A stretch of 63,922 nt of DNA, counting the filler, from Collodictyon triciliatum (Eukaryota), in NCBI GenBank assembly GCA_043381765.1. It is 6 parts of 6 records of this genome, joined end to end, with 100 filler letters (N's around TTAATTAATTAA, not from the genome) between each part and the next. Parts side by side here need not be neighbours in the genome. Positions count along the whole stretch, not along the records: positions 1 to 17,167 come from JBHJMP010002032.1; 5 more parts are not named here. One strand, 5' to 3'. This document shows positions 1-57,786 of the stretch, in pieces; the first letter of the stretch is position 1; each line of letters opens with the position of its first letter. Under the pieces are notes generated by a model that had not been told where the DNA came from, made no database searches, and saw only the letters and a program-made list of their open reading frames with translations. A program made the position numbers and the translations under genes.

Positions 1-169
1 GCAAAAAAGTAATAAAGGAAAATTAAAAAAATCATACATATAAGTCATCACAAACAATTTACCATAATATTTGTAAACTTTCATAAATAAACAAAAACAA
101 AAACAAAAACAAAAAAAAGAGGCACGCAAAAGCGAGGTTTGAGGGAGCTAACAACGGGACGCAATCAAG

Positions 170-3100
170 CCATCCTATGATATCTGAGACCACAACCGAT
201 AGCGACCAGGTGATTTTTATTGTCTGACGCTCGGATTGGAAAAGAGAGAGAAATCACACTAATTATATATACAAACAGACAAATTCAGTGTTGTGCATAT
301 TGCCTCTTTTAAAAAAATTTTAAATTATAATACTGATAAATCATGTTATATGAGAAGAAATCTCAATCTTTCAAGGATGACCAAAGTCAAACTGGGAAGA
401 AGAAGAAGAAGCGAGGCGACCAAGAGAACGCCTCCGAGTATACAACTTCAAGTAAAGAGAAAGTTCGGTAAGTGAACCAGCAATAATTGCAGATATACCC
501 ATTTTTGTTTAGGTCATGTTCAAAAGGCATCAATCCAAGTATTTTTAATGTTTTTTTTTTCAACTGACTTATTTAATCATCGCACAGGCTGCGTCTTCTC
601 AAGAATAAAATAAACCGTATTCGAAAAATTGACATTGCTCTTGACTCTAAAGCCGTCAATCGTTTCTCTTCGCTGCTCAACTTACTTCGTGTTATTTTAT
701 TCGTCATACCCATTGCAGGTAATTTTTCTCGTATATATGCCCCCAAATCTTAATTCCGTATCTACCTCTTTGAGCTCCAATCAAGTAGTTTGATATGCTT
801 TATCTGTATATGACTCCATGCTTTGATTAAAAAAATTCACATGAAAATTAGGCTTCGCTGTCTTCACTCACTCAATCAAGCTGCTTCAGTACAACGCAGT
901 GGTCTAAAATATTATTTTTTTAATTTTCAGAATAATAATAATGATAACGATAATAAGGTAACCAACCTCGAGCCAGGAAACTACGGATGCGCTTCAGACC
1001 CCACCTGCATTCAGCAAGCTCGCGATTCTGCACTCGAATATGTGCTAACGTTCCAGGATAATTATGTGAAGATGTACACAACATTGAATCCTTCGTTTAC
1101 CAAATTGAAAGACTACTGGTCAAAGGGGTCGATTAGCGTCCAGTTTTACACTGGTGAGTTTTTGAAGCCCGCAACAGAAACTCTGAGCTTTCTTGAGGCT
1201 CTCAATTACTTCAGCACCAGCGCAAATAACGTGTTGAAACTAGGTAAGAGAGCTAATCATTCACATTTCCACTACAAGTGTGTCATTATGAAACAGTTTG
1301 AATTAATTTTAACCCAGCCGATGCTTTTATGCAGATGCAAATACAGATTATTCTAAGAATGCAGATTATCTTTTTGTGACAAAGAATGGTCCTGGTGTTA
1401 TCTTTGATAGCATTGTCAAGCTGGAAAATATGCTTCTTGATGAGGAAGTGGTTATCATGAACCAGTTTTTCATTTCCATCGGCTGCTTGATGGGTACGAT
1501 GCTTGTTGCGATTGTGTGGGTTGCGTTATTGTGGGTTCCGAATTATGAGAAGGTCAGAGAAGAGGTCAGTGCACTGGGAAAGCTTCGTGAGATTCCACGA
1601 CCTGGTAAGAACGAAGCATTTTATTCGCGTCCAATATTACCAATATGTTAGACAGAAAATTGAATTCATGATGTCCTCAAAATGAGTCAGTTTATTAAGT
1701 ACTTATTTCTCTTTTCATGCCTAATTATCTGTTCTAGAAATCATCAAGATGTGCAATTTGTATCGTATGAATCGAGACAACCAAGAGGACGAAGAGTTTA
1801 CATCGTTTGCCATGAGCGTTCGGACGATGAAAAAGACTTACACATACCAACGAGTCTCTATGTTGTGCTCCGTTCTTTTTGCGATGCTTGGATTTGTTGT
1901 AGTCATTACAGTCGGGATCTACAAAGCCTCCTTGTGAGTGTGAATATATAAGCAAAGGAACAAACTCAGTGTCTTCTGTTGGATTAGTAGGCTCATGGCT
2001 TCTTATGATTTTTTTACACTCAATATGCTGTTGTATAATTACATAAGCTGCTAACCTTTATTTTTTATATCTCGGATAAGGTTATCACCCGTTGCGAACG
2101 ATGCTGCGTTGCGACAGTCATACAGCGCGTCAGCCTACTATAAACTGCGGGACCTTTACTTGACCGAGAATGTGACTTCCCACATGCGAGACGATTTGGC
2201 AGTGACGCGAGAAGTACAGCTACTTATTGATATCACTATTACGCCATCTTTTTCTTGTTCATTGCATTCCTCTTATCACAGGAAAATTCCCTTGCGTGGC
2301 TTTATTCGTGAGTTTTATATAAAGAAAGGATTTCATCCGTAGTAACAATATCGAATCACCATGCAGAATGTGATGACAACAAATAACAAACTTGTTCTTG
2401 CTTCATGGGGAAATGCTGAAGAAGAAAAATGGATGCTTGAGCGTTGCAGTGCCAATCTGGCCCTGGGTATTCAACGGTATATCATCTCGCTGATGTTTAA
2501 CACCATGCAGGTTGGAAGCCTTTTCGTTGAGGCATAAATATTTTTATTGTACTTATTTGACAATATTTGTTCATAAATTTAAGTTTTCTTCATAATCAGT
2601 TGATATTGATACTTAAGATGATTTTTTATTCAGGAATCCTACCAAGCTCTTCATTTATCCTTTCCTGATCGAATCAAAGCCGCTGCCACAAACTATTCCT
2701 ACGGAAGCTTTGATGGATTCATCATGGAATGCATGGTCAAAATACAAAAGCATTACAACGATGCGGCCATCCAAACTCGCAGCGATACCAGAACAAGAGG
2801 AAATGTGTACTTTTGGCTGATTTGGCCGGTGTTCTTCTTCACATTCGGTAAAATCATCTAAAAAATTAAAATAATTTATAATATTTGATGAATCCATCTC
2901 TAATCATTTTGCGTTTCAGAGACAAAACCTCATATTCATTATGGTTTAATATTTTAGAGTTTTCGTTTGTTTTTTGTTTGTTTTTGTTTGTTTTTGTTTG
3001 TTATTTGGTTATTTGTTTTTTATTTGGTTATTTGGTTATTTGGTTGTTTGTTTGGTTGGTTGGTTATTTGGTTGTTTGTTTGGTTTTTTTTGTTTTGTTT

Positions 3101-4548
3101 TTTGTTTTTTTGTTTTTTTTGGTTTTGTTTGTTTTGGTTTTGTTTGTTTTGGTTTTGTTTGTTTTGGTTTTTTTATGGTTTTTTATGGTTTTTTATGGTT
3201 TTTTATGGTTTTTTATGGTTTTTTATGGTTTTTTATGGTTTTTTATGGTTTTTTATGGTTTTTTNNNNNNNNNNNNNNNNNNNNNNNNNNNNNNNNNNNN
3301 NNNNNNNNNNNNNNNNNNNNNNNNNNNNNNNNNNNNNNNNNNNNNNNNNNNNNNNNNNNNNNNNNNNNNNNNNNNNNNNNNNNNNNNNNNNNNNNNNNNN
3401 NNNNNNNNNNNNNNNNNNNNNNNNNNNNNNNNNNNNNNNNNNNNNNNNNNNNNNNNNNNNNNNNNNNNNNNNNNNNNNNNNNNNNNNNNNNNNNNNNNNN
3501 NNNNNNNNNNNNNNNNNNNNNNNNNNNNNNNNNNNNNNNNNNNNNNNNNNNNNNNNNNNNNNNNNNNNNNNNNNNNNNNNNNNNNNNNNNNNNNNNNNNN
3601 NNNNNNNNNNNNNNNNNNNNNNNNNNNNNNNNNNNNNNNNNNNNNNNNNNNNNNNNNNNNNNNNNNNNNNNNNNNNNNNNNNNNNNNNNNNNNNNNNNNN
3701 NNNNNNNNNNNNNNNNNNNNNNNNNNNNNNNNNNNNNNNNNNNNNNNNNNNNNNNNNNNNNNNNNNNNNNNNNNNNNNNNNNNNNNNNNNNNNNNNNNNN
3801 NNNNNNNNNNNNNNNNNNNNNNNNNNNNNNNNNNNNNNNNNNNNNNNNNNNNNNNNNNNNNNNNNNNNNNNNNNNNNNNNNNNNNNNNNNNNNNNNNNNN
3901 NNNNNNNNNNNNNNNNNNNNNNNNNNNNNNNNNNNNNNNNNNNNNNNNNNNNNNNNNNNNNNNNNNNNNNNNNNNNNNNNNNNNNNNNNNNCAACTCTTT
4001 ATCCCGCGGCTCTCTGCCTGAAAATGCCGGTGAGGATGGGAGCATGGAAAAGGAGGGAGGCAAAGACATCGCCGATATTGTTGTGGATGTGCGAGAGGAG
4101 TTGGCGAGCGAAAATCCTGCTTATGTAGAGACTTCGCCAGCCGAAATATTTGGTATGTATCGCCTCATCTAATCAGATTGAAAAGAAAAGCATTTCAGTT
4201 TGGATACATAGCATATTCAACTCATATAATCTTTTATATTGTTTGAATGGTTTCATGTGCTTATTTGACTTACTTTTATTTGTTGGATGTGTTTTCCCAG
4301 ATGGCCAAATGTCTTACAGAAAAGACACAGACGATGTGATGGATGAGATTGAGAGAGAGCTTGCCGAGTCGCAGGCTGTGGCAGACAATGGAAGACCGCA
4401 GACGCAATGCGAAATCTGCAAGAGCACTGCAGCCTGCATGACACTTTATCCCTGCGGACATAACCAGTTCTGCTCGGCCTGCGTGGAAGGGAAAGCCCGG
4501 TGTCCGCATTGCCTGAAGGCCATCCAGTGGCGACAAATCAGCGAATAG
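170..4548 (+). CDS. Multi-exon multi-pass membrane protein (5'-partial; loosely reminiscent of TmcB/TmcC-like protist membrane proteins) with C-terminal RING finger; spans an assembly gap
   Basis: GT-AG exons with hydrophobic helices (FFISIGCLMGTMLVAIVWVALLWVP; VSMLCSVLFAMLGFVVVITVGIY). Last exon encodes CEICKSTAACMTLYPCGHNQFCSACVEGKARCPHC, stop TAG at 4546-4548. Joining across gap 3265-3991 is inferred. Confidence 0.55.
2955..3264. repeat. T/G-rich simple repeat ending in (GGTTTTTTAT)n, running into a gap
   Basis: Visible 10-mer tandem array, intronic. Confidence 0.9.
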
Positions 4549-5624
4549 CCGTGTGCCAACAATCCGACTTACACTGTTCTAATGGTTCTAATTGTTTTTG
4601 AATATTAATCACGAAGCAATCAAGAATGAATGAATTAGTATAAGAAAATAAAAAAATGATACGAAAACTTTACATTTAAAATGCTGGTTTTTATTTACTT
4701 CTTTTATTAATGTTACAAATTGTACTACATGTCACGATATGCCTTCGTCTTTAATTTTTTCTTTCTCTAACTGTCAGGGTTGTGATTAAATGATTCGCTC
4801 ATATAAGTTTGGAAAAATCATTATTAGTAATGATAAATATTCATTATTCAAACCTCTGTAGAGGACTTAACGACATTAATACGAGAATATGGAGTACAAT
4901 TTTTTTTTGGGAACTTAACCGGATGCTATAAATATTCAGGCTTCGCTATTTTTTCATCAGTTTCCTTTGATTTCATCCTTCCTTCTCTCGAATACGTTTA
5001 TGATTCTACTGCTTTGAAAAAGGAATCCAATCGCCGTCATACTCGACGAAAAGATTTATTTAATGGCGCATGCTATCTCGTCCTTGGTTGAGCTTGCAAC
5101 TCGAGATGGAACACTTATTCGATTAGTTTCGGACCCATTGCAACCAAAAAAAACGCGACAGCCTTCATCACGGGCGCGCCTTTTCAAGCTCCCCGGTCGA
5201 CAATGCGTTGGTCATCTACGCCGAAACGGTCCATAGGGCTGGGCACATATCTTGTATCCCGTTTGGAGTCAACAGGAACAGCGATTCCAAAGTCTGCAAG
5301 AGGCCAATCGCAATCGAAAACAAAAGAAGGATGGAGGGAATATACATGAACGATGCACTCGTTGCCATTGACGTAGTAGTAGTTGTAAAGTAGAAGTAGA
5401 AGCAGTAGGAGAGAGAAAAAGAGAAGGGAATAGCTGATTATTTCATTTGAATTCTTTTATTTGTATTCTTGGAGCGTTCATTTGGGAAAAAAGCTGTCAA
5501 GTCTGCTTGAAAAAACCCAGGAAATATCTCCATCTAAAGTGATTGTAGTTAAAGAACTTTTACATTAATGGGCGTTATCGATATTTCTCACCTCATTTAG
5601 CTGGGATTTTTTGTCTCCATTCAG

Positions 5625-8600
5625 CTACTTCGAATTGTCTTTCTCAACACCCCATCCATTTTTATAGCACTCAGCAACAATCGGAATAGCCTGTGGATAT
5701 TTGTGTCTTCCATACATAAGTTTCAATTCAGCCATTTCTTTCAAAACACTGAATGCGTCCTTCGAGCCTTGTTGTGCTAGTTGCTTCAATCTATCAAAGT
5801 CTAAAGACAATTTTGGGAAGGCAATGTATCTCCAATAATCCGCTCTCTTGGTGTCCTTCTCAACACCCCATTCATTTTCATAGCACTCAGCAATCATTTG
5901 AGCCTGGAACTTTGAGAACGTACCCAGCTCACAGTACGCAACAAGTTCTGCATCAAAGGAAGCAGCGCCGATTGAAAGAAGGAGGCTTTTGTTGAATCGA
6001 CTCAATCCTGCGACATTTCTGATTTGAATGTTTCCTCCTTCCAATTCTCTTGGGCCTATAATCTGGACTGTCTTCGCATCTAGGATTTTATTGACATCAA
6101 TCAAGCTCATCAGATCGTTCAGCTTGTCGAAAACTGCAATTATTTCTTCTGGTTTTTCTTTCTTAACAAGGTATTTTCCTTGGGTGTAGGTTACTTCTGA
6201 CTTTTGCAGAATATGCATTTGGTTTCCTGAGGCTGCATCCCAAATACGTATTGTTTTATCTTTACTTGCAGAAGCCAACCAGTTTTCACCATTCAGTCCT
6301 TGAATACTTCGAACAATATTGACTTCCTTTGTATGTCCTCTAAAAGTCTTGATTTGGTTTCCTGTGGCTACATCCCAAATACATATTGTTTTATCTCGAC
6401 TTCCAGAGGCCAACCAATCATCACCATTCGGCCCTTGAATACTGCAAACACTTTCAATTGGTTCTAAGTGGCCATATATTACTTTTAATGGTTTTTCTGT
6501 GACTACATTCCAAATGCGAATTGTTGCATCACTACTTCCAGAGGCCAACCAACTATCACCATTCGGTCCTTGAATAATGCAAAGACTGTTGACACCATGC
6601 TCATGACCTTTTAATGTTTTGATTCGATTTCCTGTGGCTACATCCCAAATATGTATTGACGTATCACTACTCCCAGAGGCCAACCAATTTTCACCATTTG
6701 GCCCTTGAATAATGCAAAAATTACTGGCAGCTCCTACACGACATTCCAACTTTTTGACTTGCTTCTCTGTGGACATATCCCAAATACGAATTGTACCATC
6801 ATTACTTCCAGAAGCCAACCAATTTTCCCCATCTGGTCCTTGAATACTGCAAACACTGGTAACAGCATCTGTATGACCCTCCAATGTTTTGATTTGATTT
6901 CCTTTGCCTACATCCCAAATACGAATGGTAGTATCCCGACTTCCAGAGGCCAACCAGTTTTCACCATTCGGTCCTTGAATACTACGAATAATCTTGACTT
7001 CCCTTATATGTCCTCTTAGTCTTATGATATAGTCTCCAGTGACAACATTCCAAATGCATATTTTTGTATCACCACTTCCAGAAACCAACCAGCTTTCGCC
7101 ATTCGGTCCTTGGATGCTGCAAACACTTGTGATGTGATATTTATGCCCTTTTAATGTCTGAATTTGGTCTCCTGTAACTACATCCCAAATATGCACCTTC
7201 AAATCATGACTTCCAGAAGCCAACCACTTTTCACCATTAGGTCCTTGAATAGCGCAAACACTAGCAACATAATCTGTATGACCCTCTAATGTCCTTATTT
7301 GAGTCCCTGCTGCTACATCCCAAATTGATATCGTTTTATCATGACTTCCGGAAGCCAACCAAATCTCACCATTTGGACCCTCAATATTAGAAAAACTTGT
7401 GACATAACCTGTATGACCTTCTAATGTTCTGATTTGAGTTCCTGTGACTGCATCCCAAATTCGTATTGTGCTATCATTATATCCAGAAGCCAGCCAATTT
7501 TCACCATTTGGTCCTGGAATAGAACAGACGGTGTTGACACTCCGCATATAGCCTTTTATTGCTATGATTTGTTTCCCTGTGGATACATCCCAAATACGTA
7601 TAGTCGTATCTTCACTTCCAGAAGCCAACCACTTTTCACCATTCGGTCTTTGAATACCACAAACACCATTAACACCTATTGCATGTCCCCTCAGTGTTTT
7701 GATTTGATTTCCTGAGACTATATCCCAAATTCGTATAGTTGTATCTTCACTTCCAGAAGCCAGCCAATTTTCTCCATTTGGTCCTTGAATACTGCAAACA
7801 CTGTTGACACCACTTGTATGCCCTTCTAATGTTTTGATTCGGTTCCCTGTGACTACATCCCAAATACGAATTGTTTTATCTTCACTTCCAGAAGCCAACC
7901 ACTTTTCACCATTCGGTCCTTGAATATTGCAAACACTATTGACACTGCCTGTATGCTCTTTCAATTTATCATGAGGAATTCCGAACTTCACATTATTCAT
8001 ATGCGCATTATCAAAAATACAATCACCAAGCATCGAATTCGTGAAATCAACGCCATCCAAGTTGGCACCAGTAAAATTTGCACTATCAACGATTGAGTTA
8101 CTGAGATTTGCATGTGGAATTTTGATGTTTGATAAATCCATTCCACTGAAAGAAATATTCATGAAATTCAAAATTGTGATTGCATTAGACGCAGCCTTTG
8201 ATTTGCTTTCATCAGTCTTTGACATGTAGACAATCTTGAATAATGATGCAATTATTTGCTCATGATTCCAATGGTCATCAAGTTTTGAATCATCAAGTGT
8301 TTCATCGATGAATTCCTTGACTCTTGTAAACTCGACAGGCTCTTTGTTGATTCCGATTTCTTTTGAATGGAAGGACAAGTATTCGCATGAGTTTAATGTT
8401 TTGGCGTGAATCCATCCGAGTTTATCAGCAAATCTGTCTTTCATATCAGCCCAGAATGCCACTGCTTCGTTATGCTGCTTATTTTCTTTGCAGTGTTTGT
8501 GTACAGTCTCACAAGCCACCCAACTGCTCCAGTTATCATAAGATGACTTTTCAGCATGTCTAACAGCTGCTGTTTTGTAAAGCGAAATAGCTATGTGGTG

Positions 8601-11600
8601 CTCATACTTTTCTTTCATAAACTTTGAAATTCTCGTACACTGGGATCCATCTTTTAGAGATAAAAGACTTCTTGACTCCTTCCTGATAGCAGCTGCCTTC
8701 TGGAAGTATTCAAGAACTTGGTCCAATCTATATTCATTCAAATTAGTGATTTTTAAAATGATTCAGTCAGAAATACCATTTAAAGAAATGAAGTTACCTT
8801 TGAAGCTCAAAGTTTGTTCTACCAACATTTTCAAGGGAAGTCGCATAATCAGCATTATTTTCGCCCAGTGTCCTCATGCGAATATCCAGTGTCTTTGTAT
8901 AGAACTCCAGAGCGCCCTTAAAACTAAGATAGAATAGATAGATAATTATTTTTTTTCAAAAGACAACTCACCATGATGAAAAAGAGTAATTCTTAGAGTT
9001 ACTCATTCAATTTGTGGCTGGTGTCTCCAATCATTTCGTAGCAGGAAACAACGTTCGGATGATTTTCTCCAAGAGCAGAGATGAAAACATCCAGCGATTG
9101 CTTTAATGAGCTTAAGGCTTCTGTTTCCCTAAAAAAAATTTTGAGTCTGGAGAATTTATGAAAGAAACTGTAGATGAATTTTATAACCTCCCACTAGCAA
9201 GATGAACTATCGCAATAAACTGAATTGTCGAGGCAACAGAAGCATGGTTTACTCCCAGCGATTTTTCAAAAATTGATATGGCTTTTTCGTAATTTTCAAT
9301 AGATTCTCCAAACCTTAGTGATTCAATCAGATGATTTTTCATAAAATAAATGCGTGGTGATATTGAAAATCAGCTTGAATCATATTATATGTTACTTTTT
9401 CTCAGCCAGAGAGACATGACCTTGGTTCTGGTACGATATAGCGACAAGAGGATGGTCGTTGCCAAGTTTATTTCGGCGAATTTCCATGGCCTTTCTGTAT
9501 TCAGTCATAGCTTGCTCTATCCTATTACAAAAATTATTCAGCATTTACACATTGTTGCGAATGTGCATTTTAATCACACCCTAATAAATGTCAAAAATTT
9601 AAAATCTTTGGAGTATTACTTTGACTGTTTCATATACATGTCACCGAAGCGGTCATATGACTGGGCGACTTGCAAGTTATTCTCGCCCAGCTTTTCGATT
9701 CTAAAGTCCAGTGAAATCTTGTATTCCTCAAGGGCTTCATGAATTCTATGCAAATAGTAACTTAGAATAAATATTTTCGTAAACTTTATCTAATTTTGAA
9801 GTGGACGACAAGATTCACCTATCTTGTTGCTGATATACGATTCCCATCTCCTCGTGGATTGAGGCAATGCGCAGAGAATTTCGCTCATTTTTCTCAATTG
9901 AATCAAGGCATTTCTTATAGTGCACCATGGATTCAGCCCAGCTGTTTTATTTTAATATTAGAAAATAATTCTTCTGCAGATTCAGAATCATTTATTGATG
10001 TATTGGTAAGGTAAATATGATTGGTTATGTAAGTTTCTTCACTTTTGTAGGTTCTTGAAGACACGACCGAGACTCAGGTAATCAGCAGTCTTTGAATCTT
10101 GATATAAAGTTAGACTCAATGTCTACATAAAATTTCTCTTCATGGTATAAATTATCCGAATACAGGGATTTGCAAACCTTCTGATTGGTGCTTTCCAAGA
10201 CGTACATTCAGAACAGACAACAGAAACGAATTCTCAAAAGACTCCAAGAAAAACTCAACAAGCAAGTCTCCTACTTTGTCCAAAGACTGGAAAATATGGA
10301 ATAAATAACTAAAATATTATCAATGACTATAAGCAACAATTTTGAGCTGTAATGTACTGATAACCTTCAAATATTAAACCATATCTATTTTACCTTAGCA
10401 AGACTTCCATAGACATCTTTGTAGTTTGCTGCTCCACTAGTGTTGATTGCTCTCCAGCATGTAAAGAACTCATAGCGATAACGACCACTGAGCATGATAA
10501 TGATTACCTGTGGGTATAGAAAAGAGTGAAAATCATTGAATAATGACTAAAAATAATTCAATAAAATTTCAAAATAAGATATAGCGAATAAATTTTGATT
10601 ACATGGTTTTGCTTCATGTATTCGACAAGCAAGTCAAACGAATTTCCTTTCAGAAGCTGGTAGCAAATCTCAGCAACAAGTTCCTCATCCGCATCGACTG
10701 TCTCAGAGTGTTGCCCAAACAACCATTTTCCATATTTTTTATGTGTATTTTCCATCTCTTGGTTTTCAGTGAAGTAGACTTTTTCGGTGGTCTCCAAAAG
10801 CAGCTGGTGGAAGTACATGTATCTATAACAATAAAAAAAATATCCAAATTTTATCAAACAAAATAATGGAGCTCGCGCAAATATACATAATAAGAAATGA
10901 GAAATAACATCAACCTTCCATTGCGGACGAAAAGCGACTCGATGAGGGTAAAAAAGAACGATTTCCTGTTTGAATAAACAATTGGATAAATATCTGAAAA
11001 AAAAAGAGGGAAACTGCATAATAAATTTGGAAATAAGCAAACCATTCAGAAAGCCTAAATCCTGTACCGACAGCATCTTTGATATACTTGTCCAAATCGC
11101 TTTCACTCATACCGATGCGAGAAACAAAAAGAACCTTCATCGAAAGGGAGACATAGTCGACCTTATCTGTCCCTTTTCCATCAGACAAGGAAACTGCAAC
11201 GTAAACAAAGAGCTATTTATAAAAAGTCGAAAATGTGATTCTTTTTATTGTTTGCAATATGAAACCAATACACACATTCCTTGTCAAACTTCAGTTGCCA
11301 GCGTTGGATAATGAGAGTGTAAAGCTCAATGACACCATTTGTCGAAAGCAGCGACAATAATTCATCATCAAGCTTCTCATAGACACCAAAGACTCTGACT
11401 TCATCCAAGATGATGCGAAGATAGAGTGGATGGCCTATAATAAATTCAGATAATTAGAAACTAAACCATTCCATGAAAATATTCATCTAAATATATGATG
11501 TTTGAAAATAATGTCTCACCAGTATCTTTCAAGTCAGCCAAAATCATTCCAACTTGCTTTTCGTTCAGAGTCTTGTCATAGCGTTTGAGAAATGTTTTGA

Positions 11601-14600
11601 CACTATCCTTAACTTCATCCTTGGTCAACTTGGCGACAGGAATCAGCTGCAACCCACTTTTTTCGGCAGACTTGTAATTGATAAAAAAATTTTTTTTTAT
11701 TGAATCCCGCCTAAATCATTCACAATTACAGGATGAACAAATAGAATTTTTGCAATAAATACCGTGCAAGATTCATGAGTATCAATGGTAGAAACAACCA
11801 TGGCTACATTTGCTGGTGTTTCTTTTGGCAACCAGCTCAGTAGATGCGGGGCTGGAGTTCCTTGCGATTGATAGATTTGATTGATGGCGTCGATGATGAA
11901 GACAAACTTTTCGTCTCTAAAAATGATAATAATTAAATAAATTGCTATTTCAACAGCGAACCAATAAAATTTGAATACTTGGAATGGACGCAAATGTTAC
12001 TTGTTTTTCTCTTGAATCATTTTCAGCAAGCCATGTAGTCCCTCTTTTATGTATTCTGGGAGAAAAATAAAAAAGTTTTCAATATTTTCATGAAATTTCA
12101 AATGAAAGATGAAAATAAGACAATATTCAGAAATAAAATACCAGTTTCGTGGTTCTTTAGCACCGTAAAGTCTTTTGTGTTTGTGACCAGATTCCAGAAG
12201 CGAATCGAAACACTTCAAAAATGTATATTTGTATAAAAAGCCGCAAAATTAATATAAAGCTTATCTTTAAATCAGAAAGAAATGAAAAGAACAAACCTTT
12301 CCACGTAGTTGCTGAGATTAGTGCATCCGACAAAATGGAAAAAGATGTTCAGTCCAGGATGCTTCAGGCCTTCCAGGTCTCTCGCTGTAGCAGCCATGAG
12401 CGACGACTTACCAATTCCAGACTCAGCAGCAAGAACGATGATTTTGGACTTCTCTACGCTGAGTTGATTCATAGCCTGACAAAATTTAAACTATAAGAAA
12501 AGCCAAACGAAAGGGAAAAAATATGTTGTCATTTTAATTCCATTATTTTTCAGCTTACTTTCTCTGTTATTGTCTTGAGGAGCTCCTTTCTTCCACTAAA
12601 CCCAGCCAGTCGGTGCATCTTGAACTGGTGCTGCGCTTGGTCTTCAGGGTCTCTCACCTGGTATATGGTATGATTTGAACAAAATATAAACAATATATTC
12701 TATGTCCAATAAATATCGAAGTCTCCTTGCTGATCAAAACAAAAGATACGATTTGATTTCCAAAGTCACGCTCGATGGCATAGGTGAGGTGGTGGGTCAC
12801 CAAGAACGAATACTGATACGCTCCTTTGTAAACAACATGCCCGAACTTGGCCATGACTTTCCCTTTCAGCTCCTCCTGTCTTTTACGCTGGAATCATATA
12901 TACATCAATATCAAATCATTTCATTTCATAGAAATATTAATATAGCTGGAAAAATATAAAAATAATTCTGCCAATTTCTTTACAGCCTCTTCGCTTTCAG
13001 CATGGAACAGCCTCCTTTCTTCCTCGCTCTTGGCATGTTGGATAGCATAGTGTTCATCACGGAGGTAGAAGAATGCGCGGCTGCATGCTGGTTTGTCAAT
13101 CAGACAGGCATGTTGAATCTGAACAGAATTTAATCAAGAAAACGACTTTTTTAATTTCTCTGTAATATTCACCATGATGAAAAATACCTAATAAAACATT
13201 TATATTAATTTCACCTCGTATTCAGTCACACTCAACCCAGGCATTCCATTGATAAAAGGGAAGCGGCTATTGGTTTCACTGCGCCATTCCACCCAAATAT
13301 CCTTCATGGTGGCATCAGGTTTGGTATTCAGCAGCTCCTCAAGGCGGGCTTGTTTGTTCAAATCAGTCTTACTTTGGTCAGGAATCCAGCCATAACGCGC
13401 ACCAAGAGAGCACACAAAGTATGGGCATTTTCCAATTGAATCCAGGCAGCGAATCACAACCTATGAAAAATGAAGAAATTTGGGTTCTCCATTTTTTAGA
13501 ACTCAAATGCCATTAAAATTACACAAAATATGGAAGGTTGTAATTATTATTTGATTACCCATCCCTCACTACTGTCCTCAGAAGTCAGTCCCCAGCGCAA
13601 ATCGATAAAAACAAGGTCCAATCCCTTCGATTTTGCAAGTCTTTTCAACCTGATATGTATATAATAAAATTGTGAGTAGATTGAATAATGACCTTTAATG
13701 ATTGATTTATTTAATCCATTCAATAAAATAGTAGGATGACTTACTCAGGGGCTCCATTCTTGAAGAACTCGTCTCTTTCATGCTGCATGTCACGAAAAGT
13801 CGAGGAAAGGAATACGCGGATGACACGCTCATCAAAGACTATGGATGGCAATGGTGTCGCGGTCACATATCTTTGTGGGGCCGGATTCCACTTCTTGTAT
13901 TGCCTCTCCTTCAGGTCTTCACGAGCAAGCTTCATCTGGTTTGGATTTGAGATTATATCTCACAAAAAAGAAGATGAATGAATTTGATTTTTTTTTCATT
14001 TTTGATATTAATTGATTGCCTTGTCAAGAAGAATGCAAGTGCGGATGAGCACGACAGAGCCTTTTTCTTCCAAACCGAAGCCTTTATAAATCATTATAAT
14101 CATATTTTACAGATAAATCCAAAATAATTTGCATAAAATTTAAATGATGATATAAGTAGATCTTATTCCAACCATGAAACGGAAACGGAGCCTTCGCTCT
14201 TTCGTAGAGCTTCTTGGCAATATCGTACCTCTCACGACATTTTTTCTACATTTTTTTAAATGACCAGCCTTAAATTCCAAGACAAGCTATCAAATCAAAA
14301 ACTTATTGAAAGGAATAAAAAAAAGATATTGTTACGCCTAGGCTCCCCAAATGACCAACACTTTTTCCAATAAGATGATGTATGGTGGGACTAACGATAT
14401 CTGTAATACAAATGAATTTTCATCCGTGCATAAAAATTTTTAGTGGTTGATGACAAAACAAAACAAAAAATGGAAATTCAAGCAAACCTTTGTATCGACC
14501 ATGAACAGCAGAAGCCTCGTCAGGCACATTCAATTTAAGAAACCAATCAAGGATGAGTCTTTGATTCTCGTCAACAAGCACCTCCTCCTCAATCGCTTTG

Positions 14601-14974
14601 TCACTGAAAAGGAGCGATTAAGTATCAAATCATGAAGAATAGATTGATTGAGGATCATATAAATGGAAATGGAAATCATACGCAAACAAGCGGGAATGGT
14701 AGCTTCCCGGAGACTTTCCAGTGATCATCTCGATCAGCATGGCCAAAAAGAAGCCATCCACAAAGTCGTCACGGATGTTCTTCGCCTTGAGCTCAATTTT
14801 CTCCAGCTGATGGTTCACCCATTCGAGAACCGCCTGTGCCAGTTTTTGGTGCAAGTAATCAGATAAATTCTAAAACACCAAATAATTATCATTACAAAAA
14901 CGTGTGCATAAACAAACCTCGTCAATGGTGACAAGGCTGGCGTTGGCCTCGGTGCTTGCTTCGGTTGTGGACAT
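5625..14974 (-). CDS. NLR/STAND-like protein: CH-like N-terminus, DUF4062, NACHT-type P-loop NTPase (NPHP3/TEP1-like), TPRs, pentapeptide repeats, 13 WD40, Sel1-like repeats
   Basis: ATG at 14974 (MSTTEAST). CH-like LAQAVLEWVNHQL...DDFVDGFFLAMLIEMITGK. DUF4062 RVIRVFLSSTFRDMQHERD...FIDLRWG...CPYFVCSLGARYGW. Walker A AESGIGKS, Walker B FVFIIDAINQ. TPR exons 8798-9941. A 70-nt GT-AG intron (8797-8728) joins in frame to the 3.1-kb last exon (ELQR/LDQVLEYFQKA). Stop TAG at 5625-5627. One GC-AG intron (donor 14019). Confidence 0.85.
6220..7967 (-). repeat. Coding tandem array of 13 x 135-nt (45-aa) WD40 units
   Basis: Consensus IKTLEGHxxxVxSVCSIQGPNGExWLASGSxDxTIRIWDVxTGxQ occurs 13 times; DNA-level similarity between units is obvious. 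Confidence 0.95.
8798..9941 (-). repeat. Six consecutive symmetric phase-2 exons, one 42-aa TPR period each
   Basis: Exons 9941-9819 (123 nt) and 9745-9620, 9521-9396, 9313-9188, 9128-9003, 8923-8798 (126 nt each). All are GT-AG bounded and open, with kinesin-light-chain-type LGxxHPxVA motifs. Confidence 0.9.
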
Positions 14975-16879
14975 GCTTTCAATATTCTTTTGCTTAATTG
15001 GTATTTTGAATAAGAAATTGTTTAAGAGTTATATTTTTGCCTAATTATCAACAAGTCATCGATTCAAATCAACCAATGCTGCTTTTTTTATTTATGGATA
15101 TCTTCTAAGCCCTTTCGATGCACATGTTGAATGCATTTTGGGAATATTTTAAAGACTATCGATTTATCATAATATCCTTCTTTCTTAGAGCTAAAGACAT
15201 TGTGAACTCTGAATAAGATGTTATCATGCTTCTATTTTTCATCAGAAAAACAATTTTCAACTACTAGAATATATCTCTCGATGTGTGGTGAATTCCATCA
15301 ACATTTCTTTGATTGGATATTTGATTTATTCAATCCTTTTTATTGTTAACACTATTTATATATGTCCCATGCATCATACAACCAAAATAATCATTCAATT
15401 GATGCTAGATAGGTCACATATAATTCGTATATATAGGAAATAGTATGTAGAGAAACCCGACGAGATGAATCAGTTTATTTCTGGTCGATGTTAATACATT
15501 TCTTTTAATACTAGTTGAATACTGGTATAGTGATTGGATAAAAATGTGGTCATTAAATATGTTCTCGCATAATACCACATATATTACCGAAATGAGAACA
15601 CAATACTGATTTTAAAATCAACATCCTTCAATTGGACCTCCTCTTTGATATGAGAGGATTTTTCGTACAGTTCGGATACATTATTACCAAAAGATTATCG
15701 CATATGTTTTCCATATTGCATCTGCTCACCCTTCATTCAACTTCTGAGTGCTTTTCACAAGCTCCTGACAGTAGCTAGGATATTGTCCATGATAAGTAGT
15801 TTCGTGAATGAATCTTGATTTTTGAAGAAAATTTTTTACTAATCCTCAAAGAAAAATTAGCTCATACTGCGAATAATATGATGGAAAGGGGTTTCCAAGT
15901 TATTTCATCTCTCGGCCGTGGCGAACCTTTCGAGGGTTTTAAGTTGCGGAAAAGTTTCTGTGCATCCTTTGGGTTAACGGAAGAGCCGGATGGTAACTTT
16001 CTCTTCGCAATGGCCATAATGATTTAGGACTTTGACAATTTCTTTCTTTTCTTAGTTGTTAGCGTGATAATTCTGTGCCAACTAGTATTTACCTCGAAGG
16101 CGGACGTAGCAGTAGAGTCCATACAGACTCTGCTCCCAGGTGCTCCTTGATCGGCGGGTCGGTGTGGCTGAAGAGCGTTGATTGAGAAGGGGTTTGATTC
16201 TTTTGCGAACAACTATCCTTTTAAGCTGGTGGGATGGCCTCAGAAATCGGGGTTGTCTCCATGCTGTTATTCCGCCCAAGGTATAGAAAGGAATAAAAGG
16301 TAAAAAAAAAAAGGTATAAGAGGTATAAAAGAACAGTAAATCTGCAATACAGTAACACTGACTGAGACTCTCCCGTTTTCTACATTTTGTTCCCGGCTGA
16401 TCGCGTGCACGAAAACGAGGCAAAGAATGGAACTGTAAAATCCTGAAGGCACGTGCCTCGACCGCCAACCAAGGATATATTATTTAGAAGCTGATTCATC
16501 AGCCAGCAGAGTTGAAGAAGCGTCGGTAAGGCAAAGAAAAAATCTTCATTCAAAGCCGCTTAGGTAAGAATGTTACGAATTAAAAGTATATATATCAAGA
16601 GGAATATTAGATAATTAACATACTTCAAACAGTGCTATGCGGTACATCAGATGGCAGCTAGGTTGATTGTATTTTATAATGTATAGATTCCAGATATGGA
16701 TTTTGACAATTACTCCTTTCCGTAATAATTCATTTTCGATCTGTTCCCTTTTTTGTACGCAGGTGAGGGAGGACGGAAGATTGTGATTTTGCTAAATCTA
16801 CACCTAGCTGCGGATAAATGAAATCTACTATTTTACTCTGCCTTTATATGATGGAGAACACAACATAAATCGCAATCAC

Positions 16880-17167
16880 TAAAGGATTCGCAAACTGCAG
16901 CCAGTTCTTTAAATTCCAACACTGGCGCGGAAAAACCCCGAGTTGCACGCAAGTCCAGGAAGACCCGTGCAAGGAAGCCGCCTGCAAGTCTGTATGAGAG
17001 ACAGTATTTTTGCACGGGTCGAGCAAGTCGTTTACAACAAGAACAAGGCCCGCAGGCCCACAGATGCACTCGCCTCCTTCTTGAAAGCGAACAAACTTTG
17101 GGAAGAGTCCATCCAATTGCGCTTACCGGACAGCGAAGGCCTTTGCCTGATCGCCTTCCGCACTGCA
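16880..17167 (+). mobile_element. Fragment of a dispersed repeat (putative non-LTR retrotransposon ORF1), truncated by the scaffold end
   Basis: Closely similar to about 54950-55232 (CCAACACTGGCGCGGAAAAACCCC...TTCCGCACTGCA); shared peptide ANKLWEESIQLRLPDSEGLCLIAFRTA. Confidence 0.65.
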
Positions 17168-17925: not shown

Positions 17926-18102
17926 ATTCTTTTATTCAATTCAAGGGGATGGTCTTAACAATTTTCTACAGTCCAACGTACAAAAAGAAAATAAATATAA
18001 ATTAACCAACAATTTCATTTATGAGTGCTGGATTTAATATTTACATTTTTTCAATACTTAAAAAGAAACCGAGCTGGAAGATATCATTGGCGTTGCTTGA
18101 AT

Positions 18103-19980
18103 ATGGATGTTTGGAGTGGTATCAAAGCAAATCATAGCGATCCTGTCATCGCATGGGCCGAAAACTCATCCATTCGAAACTGTAATGACAATATGGAAAA
18201 TCTACCTCTATCCACTTGCGAACCAGTATGCAAGTCTTCAAATGTAAAAAAAGAGGAAGGAGAGAGCTCTTCATCCTCTCAACCCAAGAAAACAGCTAGC
18301 GAATCCAACCACGCAAAACTTGTATTGAGGAAGAGTTTTAATCTTGTGGAGAGAAGAAAAACGATACTTTCATTGCTTATAAAGAACAGAATTATATTCA
18401 AAAAGTTACTTTTTATATACAAGCACCCAATTACCACAATCATAATAACACTGTCATGGCTCATTTGCCACGTAAATGTTATGGCCATATGTTTTAGAGT
18501 TCCTGTCATGTCCAACGAAATATATGTTCCTTTACAATTAGTGTTCACATTGAATTTCTGCATACTCAACTTTGTTTTCATCCGGGTTGACATAGTGAGG
18601 CAATTAGCAAAATCATTCAATTTCTGGTTCACTATTTGGAGTGTCATATCATTCCATGTGTGCTACCTTATACTATGGGGACCAAAGGTTGAATCGTTTT
18701 GTGCAGTGGGACATTCTCTATCGAGTATTGTTTTACTCATACTTTTCGATGCTCATGCTAGGAAACATCTCATGGTGATGAAAATAGCTTCCGTGCTTGG
18801 AACGTTATCATATATTCCGTTGACTGTCGTAAGTATGTTTCGCTTGGTTGATTTTAACAACGAGATATTCTATTACCCCGATTACGGCAATTTTGAAGTT
18901 GTTAATATTAGGCTTCAAGCTGTGGACAATTTTATTACATTGATTGTCTATTTACTGCGAATTAACTTCAATCACATTATGTCGAAAAAAGCCACAAAGG
19001 TAGCTTTCCTCTCTGATTTCTACACAATTGATATAAAAGGTGGACGTTTACATGAAATGGTTCAATCAAGTGAGCCACCTCGACCGTCTTCATTAAGATT
19101 AAACTCAATCGTACCGCATTCAAACGTTGGGGGTGTTGGCCCAGATGCAGCTATTGACCAAAATGCCACAGAAAATGTAAAGAAACATGACAACCATAAT
19201 GATATTCCATCTGAAATCAATGATTTTCAAAATGTAGATTCACAAAAGTACATCCTCATAGGGATATTGGAGAACAAAACCATTGATTATGATACAAGTA
19301 ACACTTTATATTCCAGATTCATCGCAAATAGTTACCCATTAATAATCCGGGTCATAAAATCAAAATGGTATACATCCGTTGGGGTGACCATTAATATTTT
19401 TGCTATTTTTTCGTCATTTGCTCTCGGTTTCGGTTTTGACCTAGGGGAGAACATAAAAATATTAGGTATAATCATAACATTTGTTGCAATAGTATTCATC
19501 TTAATTCAAATGCTCACATCATGCAATCTGGGTATGCTCAAGTACATCACGAAATCATTTGATTTTTGGTATATGATATATTTGGCCCTCAAAATATTTA
19601 TATCTATTGGCATGCTCTGTAACTGGGACATAAGGATGATATTCTGTCTTTATACTATTCTTGCTGTCAATTGGTGCGTTGTAATCGACAGCTTTCCTTT
19701 CCCATTTAGAAAGCTGGCATATTTGGCAGTTTTGGGCTCGATGTGGATGATTTCAGCTGCCATTTTATGCAAATTCAATCTGGGTGAAACTTTTATGGAG
19801 GACAAATCCATATACATGCTAGATAGACAGCTCATGTCGTCAAGAATAACCTTCTCAAACTCAATATTTTCAATTTCTATATTCACCCTCCGATTCTTTT
19901 GGAGCTATTACAAGAACCCAAATAGACTGCTTTTCATAACTGAAAATATCAGCATCGAGGAGATAAAACACTCCAATTGA
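18103..19980 (+). CDS. Intronless multi-pass membrane protein with two homologous TM halves, function unknown
   Basis: Uninterrupted ORF, first ATG at 18103, stop TGA. Repeated motif RVDIVRQLAKSFNFWF vs NLGMLKYITKSFDFWY, each within a multi-helix hydrophobic block; the blocks are separated by a polar linker. Confidence 0.75.
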   Translation: MDVWSGIKANHSDPVIAWAENSSIRNCNDNMENLPLSTCEPVCKSSNVKKEEGESSSSSQPKKTASESNHAKLVLRKSFNLVERRKTILSLLIKNRIIFKKLLFIYKHPITTIIITLSWLICHVNVMAICFRVPVMSNEIYVPLQLVFTLNFCILNFVFIRVDIVRQLAKSFNFWFTIWSVISFHVCYLILWGPKVESFCAVGHSLSSIVLLILFDAHARKHLMVMKIASVLGTLSYIPLTVVSMFRLVDFNNEIFYYPDYGNFEVVNIRLQAVDNFITLIVYLLRINFNHIMSKKATKVAFLSDFYTIDIKGGRLHEMVQSSEPPRPSSLRLNSIVPHSNVGGVGPDAAIDQNATENVKKHDNHNDIPSEINDFQNVDSQKYILIGILENKTIDYDTSNTLYSRFIANSYPLIIRVIKSKWYTSVGVTINIFAIFSSFALGFGFDLGENIKILGIIITFVAIVFILIQMLTSCNLGMLKYITKSFDFWYMIYLALKIFISIGMLCNWDIRMIFCLYTILAVNWCVVIDSFPFPFRKLAYLAVLGSMWMISAAILCKFNLGETFMEDKSIYMLDRQLMSSRITFSNSIFSISIFTLRFFWSYYKNPNRLLFITENISIEEIKHSN

Positions 19981-50100: not shown

Positions 50101-52135
50101 AAAATTAGTCGCATGAGTCAAGGTGGTCAGATAATTATTACTGAAGTAGTTCATCAGGTAGTTTATCTCGTATCACGTATCATATATTATATATTATGTA
50201 TTATGATTATTTTTTTTTACAACTGACCAATAATAATAATTAGTGTATTTATAATGTTTATTAATTTTTTTGAAAAGGAATTGGACGACAAAATCAGACT
50301 AGTAGAAGTAGAAAATACAATTCAAGAAATTCGAAATGAGCATGTCCAGGATGAGTCAAATATGCCATTATTTGAGGTTTTTTTTTTAAAAAAAAATAAT
50401 AATTTAGTCATAAGACTTTCTTTCATAATATACCGACGAGTATCTGAATTTAAGATTTATTTTAATTCTTCCTAATCTACTGTAGGTTTGCCCTAAAGCT
50501 TTGGCAAAAAGATTGGAATACTTTAGTTTACAGCGGAATCAGTTTTGTCGTTTGACTCTCTCCAGTGATTTGGTTCGAAAACTGTTTACTATATTTATTC
50601 ATGTCATTTATATTTTTATATATTGACTTATTTCTTTTTATTTGCTGATTTACCGAATTCCCTACTAATGTATTTAATGTGTCGTACATCATATGATAAT
50701 CCAAGAGAGAGATTATTAATCATACTTTGTAGCAGTCTAAGAAAAGTGCTACCGGAGCTCCTACTCCCACGATTCCTAGCCAAGTTGTAAACTCAGATGG
50801 CGACCACGATACCGGCCACATGTACAATCATACTTTTGGAGTGATTAAGTCTCCTACGAGCATTAATTCAAACAAAATTCGTTTGGAACCTTTGCAAAAG
50901 AAATTAAGGGAGAAAAAGGATTGGGAGATAGACTTTAATGAGCTGAGTGAAGGCAAGCCGATCGGCTCTGGTTCCTTCGGTTCTGTCGTCTCTGGAGAGT
51001 ATAGAGTATGATGACTTTTTTTTAACAAAAAATGTGTTGCTTATGCGCTATAAATAATGCTCAGAATTCGTCGTAGGTATATATAGCTATATGCGATTTT
51101 ATTCCCCGCTTTGCTTGATTATTTAAATATGCATCACTTTATGGGAAATAGGGGCGCAAAGTAGCTATAAAAAAGATTATTGGAGCGAATCACAAAACTG
51201 CCGATGAAACCTACATACTTTTCCTAACCGAAGTATCCATATTCAGGTTTCTTAAGATTTTAACTTTAAACAGAACCTTATTTATGAACATTGATGTGAC
51301 GAACCAATCATACCTCCTTTTTAGTGTTACTTTAATGGAACAGGGTATTTTGTATTGTAGGAAACTGAAGCATCCAAATATCGTTGAGTTCCTCGGAGCT
51401 TGTACCGAGGTTTCTCGATTGGCCTTAGTTATGGAGATGGTAGAGTTTGGTAATTTAAACCAAGTACTGCACAATCAATCGATCGCAATCGACGGGAAGC
51501 AAAAGTATTTTTCATATAATTTATATTTCAGTGGTAGGCAATTTCTCTTCTAAGATAAGACTTTGCAAACCAGAGCAAAAATCATCGACGGAATAATCCA
51601 GGGAATGACATATTTGCATTCATTTAACCCTTTGATTCTCCATCGAGATCTGAAGTCTGCAAATATTTTGGTACAGTGAAAGACTTTTGTTGATAGTATA
51701 CATTCCATTTTCCTTTTCCTTTTCCTTTTCCTTTTACTCTTCCTTTTCCTTTTCCTTTTCCTTTTCCTTTTCCTTTTCCTTTTCCTTTTCCTTTTCCTTT
51801 TCCTTTTCCTTTTCCTTTTCCTTTTCCTTTTCCCTTTCCTTTTCCTTTTCCCTTTCCTATTCCTATTCCTATTCCTATTCCTATTCCTATTCCTATTCCT
51901 ATTCCTATTCCTATTCCTATTCCTATTCCTATTCCTATTCCTATTCCTATTCCTATTCCTATTCCTATTCCTATTCCTATTCCTATTCCTATTCCTATTC
52001 CTATTCCTATTCCTATTCCTATTCCTATTCCTATTCCTTTGCTTACTCTTTTCTTTTCTTTTCTTAATCATTTATCATTTATCATTTATCATTTATCATT
52101 TATCATTTATCATTGATCATTGATCATCTATCATC

Positions 52136-57139: not shown

Positions 57140-57786
57140 TCAAGTCCGTGTCTGGATGCCATTCAGATGGGTTTTCATGGTTTGGTGACCAGCCGTAACG
57201 TGAGCCGAGCGTGCATAGAAAGTATGGACATTCCTCGATGGATTCAAGGCAGCTGATGACGACCTATATAATCGAGATTTTTTTTTTGAAACTGATAAAA
57301 AAAATGAATGAAATAAAAAATCAAAAAGGAACTTGAATAATTCCCGCCAATCCATTTTCAGATATTTCACTGGTCAGCCCCCAGCGCAAGTCGATGAAAA
57401 CAAGGATGACACCCTTCTTCTTGGCAAAGTCTTTGATTCTGGAACAATTTTTTAACTGATCAATACACCGAACATATACATATATACTCATGGAATTTTG
57501 TAATTGAATAAAACAGTGTTACTTTTTTTTCGGCATTTGCAAAGAACTTGTCCCTTTCTTTTTGCATGTCTCGAAATGTGGAGGACATGAAGATTCTCAG
57601 GACTCTGGAGTCATAGACAGCAGTCCATTTGCCTTCGCCATCAGAATAAACTGCGGCTGGAATTAAGCCTCTGCGGATTTTTTCATCTGCTGGTGCGGGT
57701 TTTGGGGTTTGTTCCGTCTGTTTCTGGTCTCCAGATTCTTGCTGGTTGGCGGCGTCGGAATGTCTGTTTGGTGATGGCTCGGACAT
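57140..57786 (-). CDS. DUF4062-domain protein (paralogue of the 5625-14974 NLR-like gene), 3'-partial
   Basis: RVLRIFMSSTFRDMQKERD / FIDLRWGLTSE / CPYFLCTLGSRYGW; cut by the scaffold end. Confidence 0.85.

Follow-up and report, generated by a model that had tools for sequence, protein, structure and literature searches.

Introduction

As described in the available parts of two preprints (10.64898/2026.05.01.722283, 10.64898/2026.09.04.749371), DUF4062, renamed NIR in one of them, is a TIR-like NADase domain with a catalytic glutamate, and is the effector of bacterial Avs and other defence systems. In eukaryotes, according to the same parts, NIR is mostly N-terminal in NLR-like proteins, which in mammals are NWD1, NWD2, TEP1, TTC41 and, just below threshold, NPHP3. 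The NIR of human TEP1 is reported there to be active and to depend on E1008, with R908 and R976 contributing, since their substitution lowers activity. NIR-containing NLR-like proteins were recognised only in 2026, and they link bacterial anti-phage NADases with the poorly understood human TEP1, NWD1/2, NPHP3 and TTC41. Here, a gene of this kind is described from the protist Collodictyon triciliatum, on the minus strand of a stretch of 63,922 nucleotides (nt) from assembly GCA_043381765.1 (hereafter the window; six parts of six records joined with filler, of which positions 1 to 17,167 come from JBHJMP010002032.1).

NIR-headed NLR-like proteins are thus already known from the 2026 preprints, and the window gene is a rare variant of them. 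It is almost certainly one gene with a CH - NIR - NTPase - TPR - pentapeptide - WD40 architecture. The order of parts is a CH-like domain, NIR (DUF4062), a divergent NACHT-type NTPase, a helical/winged-helix region, about seven tetratricopeptide repeats (TPR), a helical linker, pentapeptide repeats, 13 WD40 units and a helical tail, so that an N-terminal effector, a central NTPase and C-terminal superstructure-forming repeats are found in one polypeptide, the tripartite arrangement of NLR-like proteins. This arrangement was not found described in the literature searched (DUF4062, NACHT/WD40/TPR in protists, fungal NLR repeats and STAND), although supplements of the NIR preprints may list proteins of Diphylleia rotans.

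The locus provides an intron-resolved member of the group from a deep-branching protist lineage, in which the repeat types of both animal sub-branches sit on one core, with a CH domain and a widely shared pentapeptide-WD40 segment added. It is a natural test case for whether a STAND switch can read two repeat modules, and a clear example of domain shuffling, with one TPR per symmetric exon as against a long intron-less WD40 exon.

Comparison with described systems

Human TEP1, NWD1 and NWD2 resemble the window gene in carrying NIR, N-terminal or internal, next to a NACHT-type NTPase, followed by a helical region and then many WD40 repeats. For TEP1 the likeness extends to the active site, the glutamate and two arginines of which are kept in the window gene, and TEP1-like proteins match its NIR-NTPase core at E values of 1e-33 to 1e-16. 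However, core identity is 24-31%, the window gene adds genuine TPR, pentapeptide and CH parts, and it is not a TEP1 orthologue; TROVE, sought as the mark of such an orthologue, had no match in Pfam scans of window pieces or of the N-terminal part of P0012, the closest D. rotans homologue (see below).

NPHP3/TTC41-type proteins, and protist proteins of DUF4062-NACHT-TPR type such as P0169 of Balamuthia mandrillaris, share NIR, NTPase and kinesin-light-chain-type TPR with the window gene. The Balamuthia-type proteins are the best matches to the core outside the family (E 1e-52), yet at 25-27% identity. These proteins end with the TPR, whereas the window gene continues with linker, pentapeptide repeats and 13 WD40 units. 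NPHP3 orthology is not indicated, as P0012 scores 22.6 bits with NPHP3_N (cut-off 24.8) and 65.2 bits with TPR_NPHP3 (cut-off 100).

Among more distant systems, the bacterial NIR STAND defence proteins (PsAvs2 and others) have the same logic of effector, NTPase and repeat sensor, and their NIR is NAD+-depleting and Glu-dependent, as stated in the available part of the Le Mouellic et al. 2026 preprint. The window gene is in contrast eukaryotic, intron-rich and far larger, with other sensors, and no phage-type trigger is known for it. Apaf-1, of which full-length structures (3shf, 3sfz) match the last exon in fold, has an NB-ARC NTPase and a CARD effector and is without TPR or pentapeptide repeats. 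NACHT-pentapeptide-WD40 proteins of Mortierellomycota (Linnemannia, Entomortierella) share a segment of about 90 amino acids leading into WD40 (33-42% identity by BLASTP), but their NTPase matches Pfam NACHT proper, and no DUF4062 or TPR was seen among the matches listed. Finally, in fungal HNWD/HET-E proteins, too, a NACHT-type NTPase is accompanied by a long row of WD40 units that resemble one another. However, the window gene does not belong with them: scans of the exons and of P0012 residues 1-1373 gave no match to the HET domain, and the WD40 units of the window gene are 59% alike, as against about 85% in HNWD according to the available part of Dyrka et al. 2014 (PMC4986451).

Gene structure and transcript evidence

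The window has the character of eukaryotic DNA: G+C is about 36%, microsatellites and N gaps are numerous, and the introns are short. Stop-to-stop open reading frame (ORF) lists for the minus strand show one frame of 1045 amino acids (8762-5625) and many short coding-looking fragments. The sequence-only reading had proposed that such separate-looking pieces are joined by splicing into one frame, and this is what the gene model gives, the frame being open across all 31 exons to yield 2263 amino acids. The gene and its exons, the latter listed from high to low coordinates, are as follows.

5625..14974, minus strand: whole gene, 31 exons, 2263 codons plus TAG; ATG at 14974, TAG stop at 5627-5625
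14974-14918, 14869-14682, 14603-14488, 14400-14336, 14245-14173, 14081-14020, 13935-13745, 13649-13559, 13460-13215, 13118-12984, minus strand: exons 1 to 10
12887-12750, 12657-12559, 12475-12297, 12212-12142, 12055-12001, 11916-11763, 11670-11520, 11434-11276, 11193-11043, 10965-10909, minus strand: exons 11 to 20
10822-10603, 10507-10394, 10286-10178, 10097-10043, 9941-9819, 9745-9620, 9521-9396, 9313-9188, 9128-9003, 8923-8798, 8727-5625, minus strand: exons 21 to 31
8728..8797, minus strand: intron between the TPR exons and the WD40 exon; phase 2, length 70 nt, ends GTAACT...ATATAG

The 30 introns are 48-107 nt long, 29 of them GT-AG and one GC-AG (14019-13936), with a donor consensus near GTAA(C/G)T. 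The model was built by splice dynamic programming with a codon model trained on unambiguous introns, and was then curated by hand against P0012. Un-penalised and homology-bonus versions of the splice model over-split the gene or followed intron read-through, and were corrected by hand. A search for exons further upstream that would correspond to P0012 residues 1-185 found none.

Public runs match only small shares of the stretch (0.06-0.13); they are freshwater metagenomes and run X5, and none is recorded as RNA. The RNA status of X5 is a guess, X1 and X3 are probably DNA, and X4 is of unknown kind. Joints from which an intron is missing are seen in X5 and in none of the three other runs aligned (X1, X3 and X4). 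Five X5 joints coincide exactly with modelled introns (14682/14603, 14020/13935, which is the GC-AG intron, 13745/13649, 13559/13460 and 12297/12212), and three further joints (12984/12887, 12750/12657 and 9188/9128) agree to within a single nt, or do so once a few replaced letters are allowed for. An X5 contig of 577 nt covers 5607-6140 in the C-terminal tail, with 4 differences.

The joint on which the two-module architecture depends, 8798/8727, had been singled out in the sequence-only reading as the place where transcripts might end. It is spliced in 4 contigs of X5, the probable RNA run, and transcripts do not end before 8727. In these contigs the match to the last exon ends at 8729 and is followed by 16 letters identical to plus-strand positions 8800-8815; this overhang matches the end of the upstream TPR exon, which is the sole such place in the window. 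The 42-residue TPR register also continues across the junction, where the seventh unit is completed.

The same arrangement is found in the collodictyonid D. rotans. P0012, an ORF of 2619 amino acids from a Trinity transcript in EukProt, is the best full-length homologue, and a single BLASTP high-scoring segment pair aligns model residues 32-2070 with P0012 residues 189-2258; of its 2089 columns 69 are gaps, and identity is 48.9%. P0165 (2401 amino acids) is collinear with model residues 32-2192 at 36%, and P0013, P0167, P0027 and P0011, all also from D. rotans, span TPR, linker and WD40 in the same order. When the 250 amino acids between TPR and WD40 were searched against 1.84 billion representative proteins with full HMMER, 4 proteins matched at E values up to 1e-30. 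The TPR-to-WD40 fusion is transcribed as one gene, as seen from the X5 joints and the collinear D. rotans ORFs.

An artefact in which neighbouring NIR-NTPase-TPR and pentapeptide-WD40 genes were wrongly joined across 8728-8797 is extremely improbable. It is true that the last exon by itself forms the 1045-residue open frame, that many proteins carry the pentapeptide-WD40 segment behind different N-terminal parts, and that no matching run is recorded as RNA. However, the only stop between the two exons lies inside the canonical 70-nt intron, a separate start would have neither an in-frame ATG context nor an upstream exon, and the completed TPR unit, the 4 spliced contigs and the uninterrupted order in P0012, P0165, P0013, P0027 and P0167 all argue for a single gene.

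The N-terminal half: CH-like, NIR and NTPase domains

The following features were assigned in the N-terminal half.

14177..14869, minus strand: CH-like (calponin homology) N-terminal domain, residues ~20-165, exons 2-5
12993..13833, minus strand: NIR/DUF4062 TIR-like domain, residues ~222-405, exons 7-10
13794-13792, 13397-13395 and 13217-13215, minus strand: NIR active-site codons, in this order for Arg235, Arg303 and Glu363, of which Glu363 is putatively catalytic and its codon closes exon 9
11406..12475, minus strand: STAND NTPase core, divergent NACHT/NPHP3_N-like, residues 488-700
12424-12401, minus strand: Walker A, residues 505-512
11906-11877, minus strand: Walker B, residues 593-602, an aspartate after a hydrophobic strand
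10045..11405, minus strand: helical/winged-helix region after the NTPase, residues 701-978, collinear with P0012 and without an assigned Pfam family

Pfam CH (PF00307, cut-off 26) gives 24.0 bits on exon 14630-14869 alone, which is half a domain, and DUF4062 (PF13271, cut-off 24.7) gives 20.7 and 24.1 bits on two window exons. These scores fall below threshold because introns cut the two domains. In P0012, CH reaches 43.4 bits at residues 191-277, in the region aligned to the window gene (38% identical there), and DUF4062 reaches 42.4 bits, above its cut-off. A search with the DUF4062 exon matched only one fragment of 167 amino acids. The CH domain suggests cytoskeletal tethering.

P0012 aligns with PDB 11gz_A, a domain of human TEP1, at E 1.7e-16. 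With the TEP1 numbering offset of 893 fixed by R908 and R976, E1008 is the second glutamate of a T-E-x-E motif, and Arg235, Arg303 and Glu363 of the window gene correspond to R908, R976 and E1008. Judged by these residues, NIR is probably a NAD-destroying effector head.

The NTPase is divergent. The P-loop exon of the window has weak NPHP3_N and AAA_16 matches, and in P0012 nSTAND1 (24.2 bits, cut-off 27.1) lies, like NPHP3_N, below threshold. Where canonical NACHT domains have two acidic residues after the Walker B aspartate, the window gene and P0012 have Asn-Gln, which may mean slow or absent hydrolysis.

The C-terminal half: repeats, linker and tail

The C-terminal half consists of the following parts, all but the first of which lie within the last exon.

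8601..10044, minus strand: TPR arm, residues 979-1272, about seven units of 42 amino acids
8163..8600, minus strand: all-helical linker, residues 1273-1418
7977..8162, minus strand: pentapeptide-repeat beta-helix, residues 1419-1480 (PF00805, 34.7 bits, cut-off 20.2)
6210..7964, minus strand: 13 WD40 units, residues 1485-2069, each exactly 45 amino acids, no indels, in one exon
5628..6209, minus strand: C-terminal tail, residues 2070-2263, helical, with two Sel1-like motifs

Six consecutive TPR exons (one of 123 nt, five of 126 nt) hold one unit each and are all phase 2 at both ends, with the seventh unit opening the last exon. In single-exon translations of 41 amino acids, TPR_12 is matched at E values of about 1e-5 in four, at 0.013 in the fifth and not in the sixth, and P0012 has six TPR_12 matches above cut-off. 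TPR_NPHP3 gives 15.4 and 22.2 bits on two window exons. The TPR units are 28% alike at the amino acid and 44% at the nucleotide level. The WD40 array is matched by Pfam at 351.6 bits (E 1e-108) in 12 stretches of the last exon, and its units have a mean identity of 59% (amino acids) and 72% (nucleotides, maximum 84%).

An AlphaFold2 model of the last exon (7-row alignment, mean pLDDT, the predicted local distance difference test score, 76) has continuous paired helices over residues 13-200 (pLDDT mostly 70-93 after residue 50) that run into the pentapeptide region, then a short beta-helix with a 5-residue strand periodicity, and then propeller blades through residue 878; the tail is modelled as helices with low to medium confidence. 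In fold the model is best matched, besides Apaf-1, by a highly repetitive propeller from cyanobacteria (2ymu) and by tandem-propeller proteins, that is, by generic tandem propellers only. The 13-blade module is probably two propellers.

The domain list of the sequence-only reading is recovered in its CH-like, DUF4062, NACHT-type NTPase, TPR, pentapeptide and 13-unit WD40 parts. Sel1 (PF08238) remains weak, at 17.8 bits (E 0.005, cut-off 30.7), and is found at the extreme C-terminus only, where the last motif is cut short by the stop.

Distribution and origin of the two-repeat architecture

Relatives were collected with the NIR-NTPase core of P0160 (residues 370-1110) among proteins of 1440-4584 amino acids, with 116 found at E values up to 1e-5. 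According to precomputed Pfam lists, TPR and WD40 families occur together in at least 3 of these 116, namely P0012, P0165 and P0167, all from D. rotans; P0013, P0027 and P0011 were added as D. rotans family members covering TPR through WD40 on the basis of pairwise alignments made here. Of the other core relatives, judged by the matches listed, some have only TPR (such as Balamuthia at 27% identity), some only WD40 (among them TEP1-like proteins, at 24-31%), and the rest are without a repeat family. TPR and WD40 hidden Markov models built from the window were too narrow as a classifier, placing 83 of the 116, TEP1 included, in neither class, and that count was discarded. The two-repeat architecture is real, rare and lineage-restricted. 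The combination had been called unusual from sequence alone, and is so; the opposite case considered at the time, a widespread and conserved single-copy housekeeping architecture, does not apply.

In a FastTree phylogeny of the core (115 rows, with P0167 dropped for lack of core coverage), the window gene groups with P0012 (support 99), then with P0165 (95), and then with P0166 of D. rotans (100), which is sister to the two-module clade and has TPR families and no WD40 in its complete Pfam list. The family's branch is long and about as distant from the TPR-type as from the WD40-type relatives; owing to long branches, the tree places it with neither.

Many unrelated proteins contain the segment of about 90 amino acids that ends in pentapeptide repeats, in most cases with WD40 after it; they include NACHT proteins of Linnemannia and Entomortierella, proteins of Hexamita inflata, a NACHT protein of Pseudomonadota and another D. 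rotans transcript. Single-stretch matches are mostly 40-59% identical. NCBIfam added little on three carriers of the pentapeptide-WD40 segment. In the search with the linker region against the 1.84 billion representatives, 5 of the 150 matches listed had their best stretch starting before query residue 100; a linker search restricted to proteins longer than 1830 amino acids gave no self match.

One further protein, P0052 (a JGI metagenome protein of 2078 amino acids), has pentapeptide repeats, then a beta-propeller, and then Sel1/TPR-like matches (AlgK and MotX models) near its C-terminus. Outside this family, too, the order of pentapeptide repeats, WD40 and a Sel1-like tail may recur as a unit.

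The simplest reading of the origin is that an NPHP3/TTC41-like NIR-NTPase-TPR protein was joined with a pentapeptide-WD40 segment in this lineage. A more elaborate reading is quite unlikely. It takes the protein as a cytoskeleton-tethered (CH) NADase switch for death or immunity, in which two inputs are integrated by successive ligand-reading surfaces, a TPR solenoid and, across a pentapeptide bridge, a double WD40 propeller, perhaps as an ancestral two-module state from which the animal branches arose by loss of one module. Such an ancestral state is suggested because the TPR of the NPHP3/TTC41 branch and the WD40 of the TEP1/NWD branch share one NIR-NTPase core; the FastTree phylogeny neither favours nor opposes it.

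Family members and divergence of the modules

That the gene belongs to a family, as had been proposed from the sequence, is borne out by the D. rotans paralogues, by contigs 85-99% alike and by a second DUF4062 piece in the window. Several diverged D. rotans members, 36-49% identical to the window gene, are expressed. From X5, 470 contigs align at 85-100% identity: 37 at 99% or more, 95 at 95-99%, 185 at 90-95% and 153 below 90%, with 113 of the 470 fitting two places because of the repeats. The probable DNA metagenome runs place 205 and 155 contigs on the stretch. This spread of identities points to what appear to be many close paralogues.

The paralogue reported earlier at 57140-57786 is real:

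57141..57786, minus strand: piece of a second DUF4062 (NIR) gene, comprising three exons with a start codon; tblastn 45-65% identity, E 9e-25; Pfam 28.2 bits (on exon 57141-57263)

Placed by eye on the protein alignment, its exon breaks coincide with those of exons 7-9, and it has no CH domain. It runs into 44-N runs at 57096-57139 and 57040-57083, with low-complexity sequence after them, and tblastn of the gene model against the window found no NTPase or repeat match following it. It is either a truncated copy or an assembly break.

Identity to P0012 differs between modules, being highest in NIR (65%), the post-NTPase helical region (62%) and the NTPase core (57%), and lower in WD40 (48%), TPR (40%), linker (39%), CH (38%) and tail (36%). 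These values follow the pattern usual for NLRs, in which the core is conserved and the repeats evolve faster, and the two repeat modules are alike in this. The pN/pS ratio (non-synonymous to synonymous differences) of the WD40 units is 0.53 overall, and 0.89 at columns picked as variable, a choice that is circular. From pN/pS and the pairwise identity of the 13 units, neither positive selection nor HNWD-like recent homogenisation is demonstrated in the WD40 units. The suggestion that the two modules diversify by different mechanisms is not borne out beyond a difference in anatomy (one TPR per 126-nt phase-2 exon, 28% alike, as against 13 WD40 units in one exon, 59% alike).

The sequence-only reading also took both repeat modules to be sensors. 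This is not borne out, as the TPR pass without a break into an all-helical stretch and may be no more than a spacer; it is somewhat doubtful that they act as a second sensor in their own right. Somewhat unlikely, too, is the converse, in which there is one sensor only, the WD40 propellers with their pentapeptide cap binding ligand and autoinhibiting, and TPR plus linker forming a rigid spacer arm. Such an arm, the counterpart of the helical domain between NTPase and WD40 in Apaf-1, TEP1 and NWD1, would make the two tandem sensors a misreading of one elaborated arm. It would be consistent with the uninterrupted paired helices predicted from the last TPR into the pentapeptide region, with the Apaf-1-like helical domain between NACHT and WD40 that the available part of the Osinski preprint describes in human DUF4062 proteins, and with the age and dissimilarity of the TPR units; the recurrence of the pentapeptide(-WD40) segment on its own in unrelated proteins suggests a self-contained sensing unit. 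However, TPR and linker diverge from P0012 as fast as WD40, beside the 57-65% of the core, which would be surprising in a spacer of purely structural function, and the TPR-only relatives P0166 and Balamuthia P0169 have this kind of TPR as their sole repeat module, so that it can be terminal.

Possible mechanism and cellular role

The recognition of DUF4062 as a TIR-like NADase effector gives this protein a concrete predicted output, which was missing from the sequence-only reading. By analogy with Apaf-1, bacterial Avs proteins and TEP1, the protein would moderately likely be an autoinhibited STAND switch, the output of which is NAD+ hydrolysis catalysed by NIR on oligomerisation. The C-terminal repeats would keep the NTPase off and bind a ligand; binding would lead to nucleotide exchange and oligomerisation of the NTPase; and oligomerisation would gather the NIR domains and switch on the hydrolysis of NAD+, yielding ADP-ribose and nicotinamide. 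The outcome could be growth arrest, cell death or an ADP-ribose-linked signal, and the CH domain may tether the protein to the cytoskeleton. NADase activity, oligomerisation-driven activation, the sensing roles of the repeat modules and any immune role are what we infer from these likenesses, and a role in defence or regulated death is proposed tentatively, as a possibility. If NIR is active, the gene would be evidence for NAD+-depleting NLR-like immunity or cell death in CRuMs-type protists.

Several points weigh against this picture. To our knowledge, the eukaryotic relatives TEP1, NPHP3 and NWD1 are not established immune proteins. The WD40 pN/pS below 1 and the good conservation with the D. 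rotans counterpart fit a conserved cellular role as well as an immune one. The NTPase of P0012 reaches 24.8 bits with NACHT (PF05729), below the cut-off of 26.7. In the gene model, exons 4-6 (14400-14020), 18-20 (11434-10909) and 23-24 (10286-10043) are the least certain, being placed by weak splice signals and homology. As for the transcripts, it is a guess that X5 is RNA, paralogues account for many of its contigs, which are no more than 85-95% alike, and the contigs with junction 8798/8727 carry only about 14 letters of the upstream exon. Finally, according to the available part of the Osinski preprint, full-length human NWD1, NWD2 and NPHP3 are without NADase activity in vitro, so that 3 of the 4 human full-length proteins assayed were inactive, and conserved residues therefore do not guarantee NADase activity.

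The last point also bears on a different role, that of a conserved housekeeping scaffold for the cytoskeleton or the flagellar apparatus, comparable to the part played by NPHP3 at cilia or by TEP1 in a ribonucleoprotein. NIR would then be inactive or serve local NAD(P) metabolism, and the protein would be no non-self receptor. This is unlikely. The CH domain, which suggests cytoskeleton binding, is the main argument for such an NPHP3-like structural role, and the complete collinearity with the D. rotans protein at 49% identity, the WD40 pN/pS below 1, the sub-threshold resemblance of the TPR to the NPHP3 TPR model (65 bits) and the inactivity of the human NPHP3, NWD1 and NWD2 as NADases in that preprint point the same way. 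However, the diverged D. rotans paralogues (36-49%) and the hundreds of contigs 85-99% alike in four runs have the look of an expanded family and not of a single conserved scaffold, the architecture was not found outside this lineage among the matches listed, and the active-site residues are kept. Were the protein a cytoskeletal scaffold after all, it would inform the cellular roles of NPHP3- and NWD-type proteins.

Other features of the window

About 1 kb past the 3' end of the gene, and convergent with it, lies a RING-finger frame. Further frames and sequence features of the window are listed with it.

4129-4548, plus strand: C3HC4 RING-finger frame (zf-C3HC4_3, 33 bits)
18025-19980, plus strand: open frame of 651 amino acids with many hydrophobic stretches and no Pfam family, unusually long for an intron-rich genome
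23792-24771 and 39573-40217, plus strand: G+C-richer islands (~42-45%) with housekeeping genes, namely a ribosomal protein of the L7Ae family (84 bits) and an OST3/OST6-family frame (34 bits)
48551-48967 and 51152-51553, plus strand: protein kinase frames, Tyr/Ser-Thr (TKL-like), PK_Tyr_Ser-Thr 84 and 38 bits, one or two genes
51.6-52.1 kb: long microsatellite of (AGA/GAA)n type

Paired 44-N runs 12 bases apart occur at five places (17168/17224, 30443/30499, 43718/43774, 57040/57096 and 61929/61985). They are regular and flanked by microsatellites, and are read as scaffolding or masking marks. There are also three long N runs of 552-727 bases.

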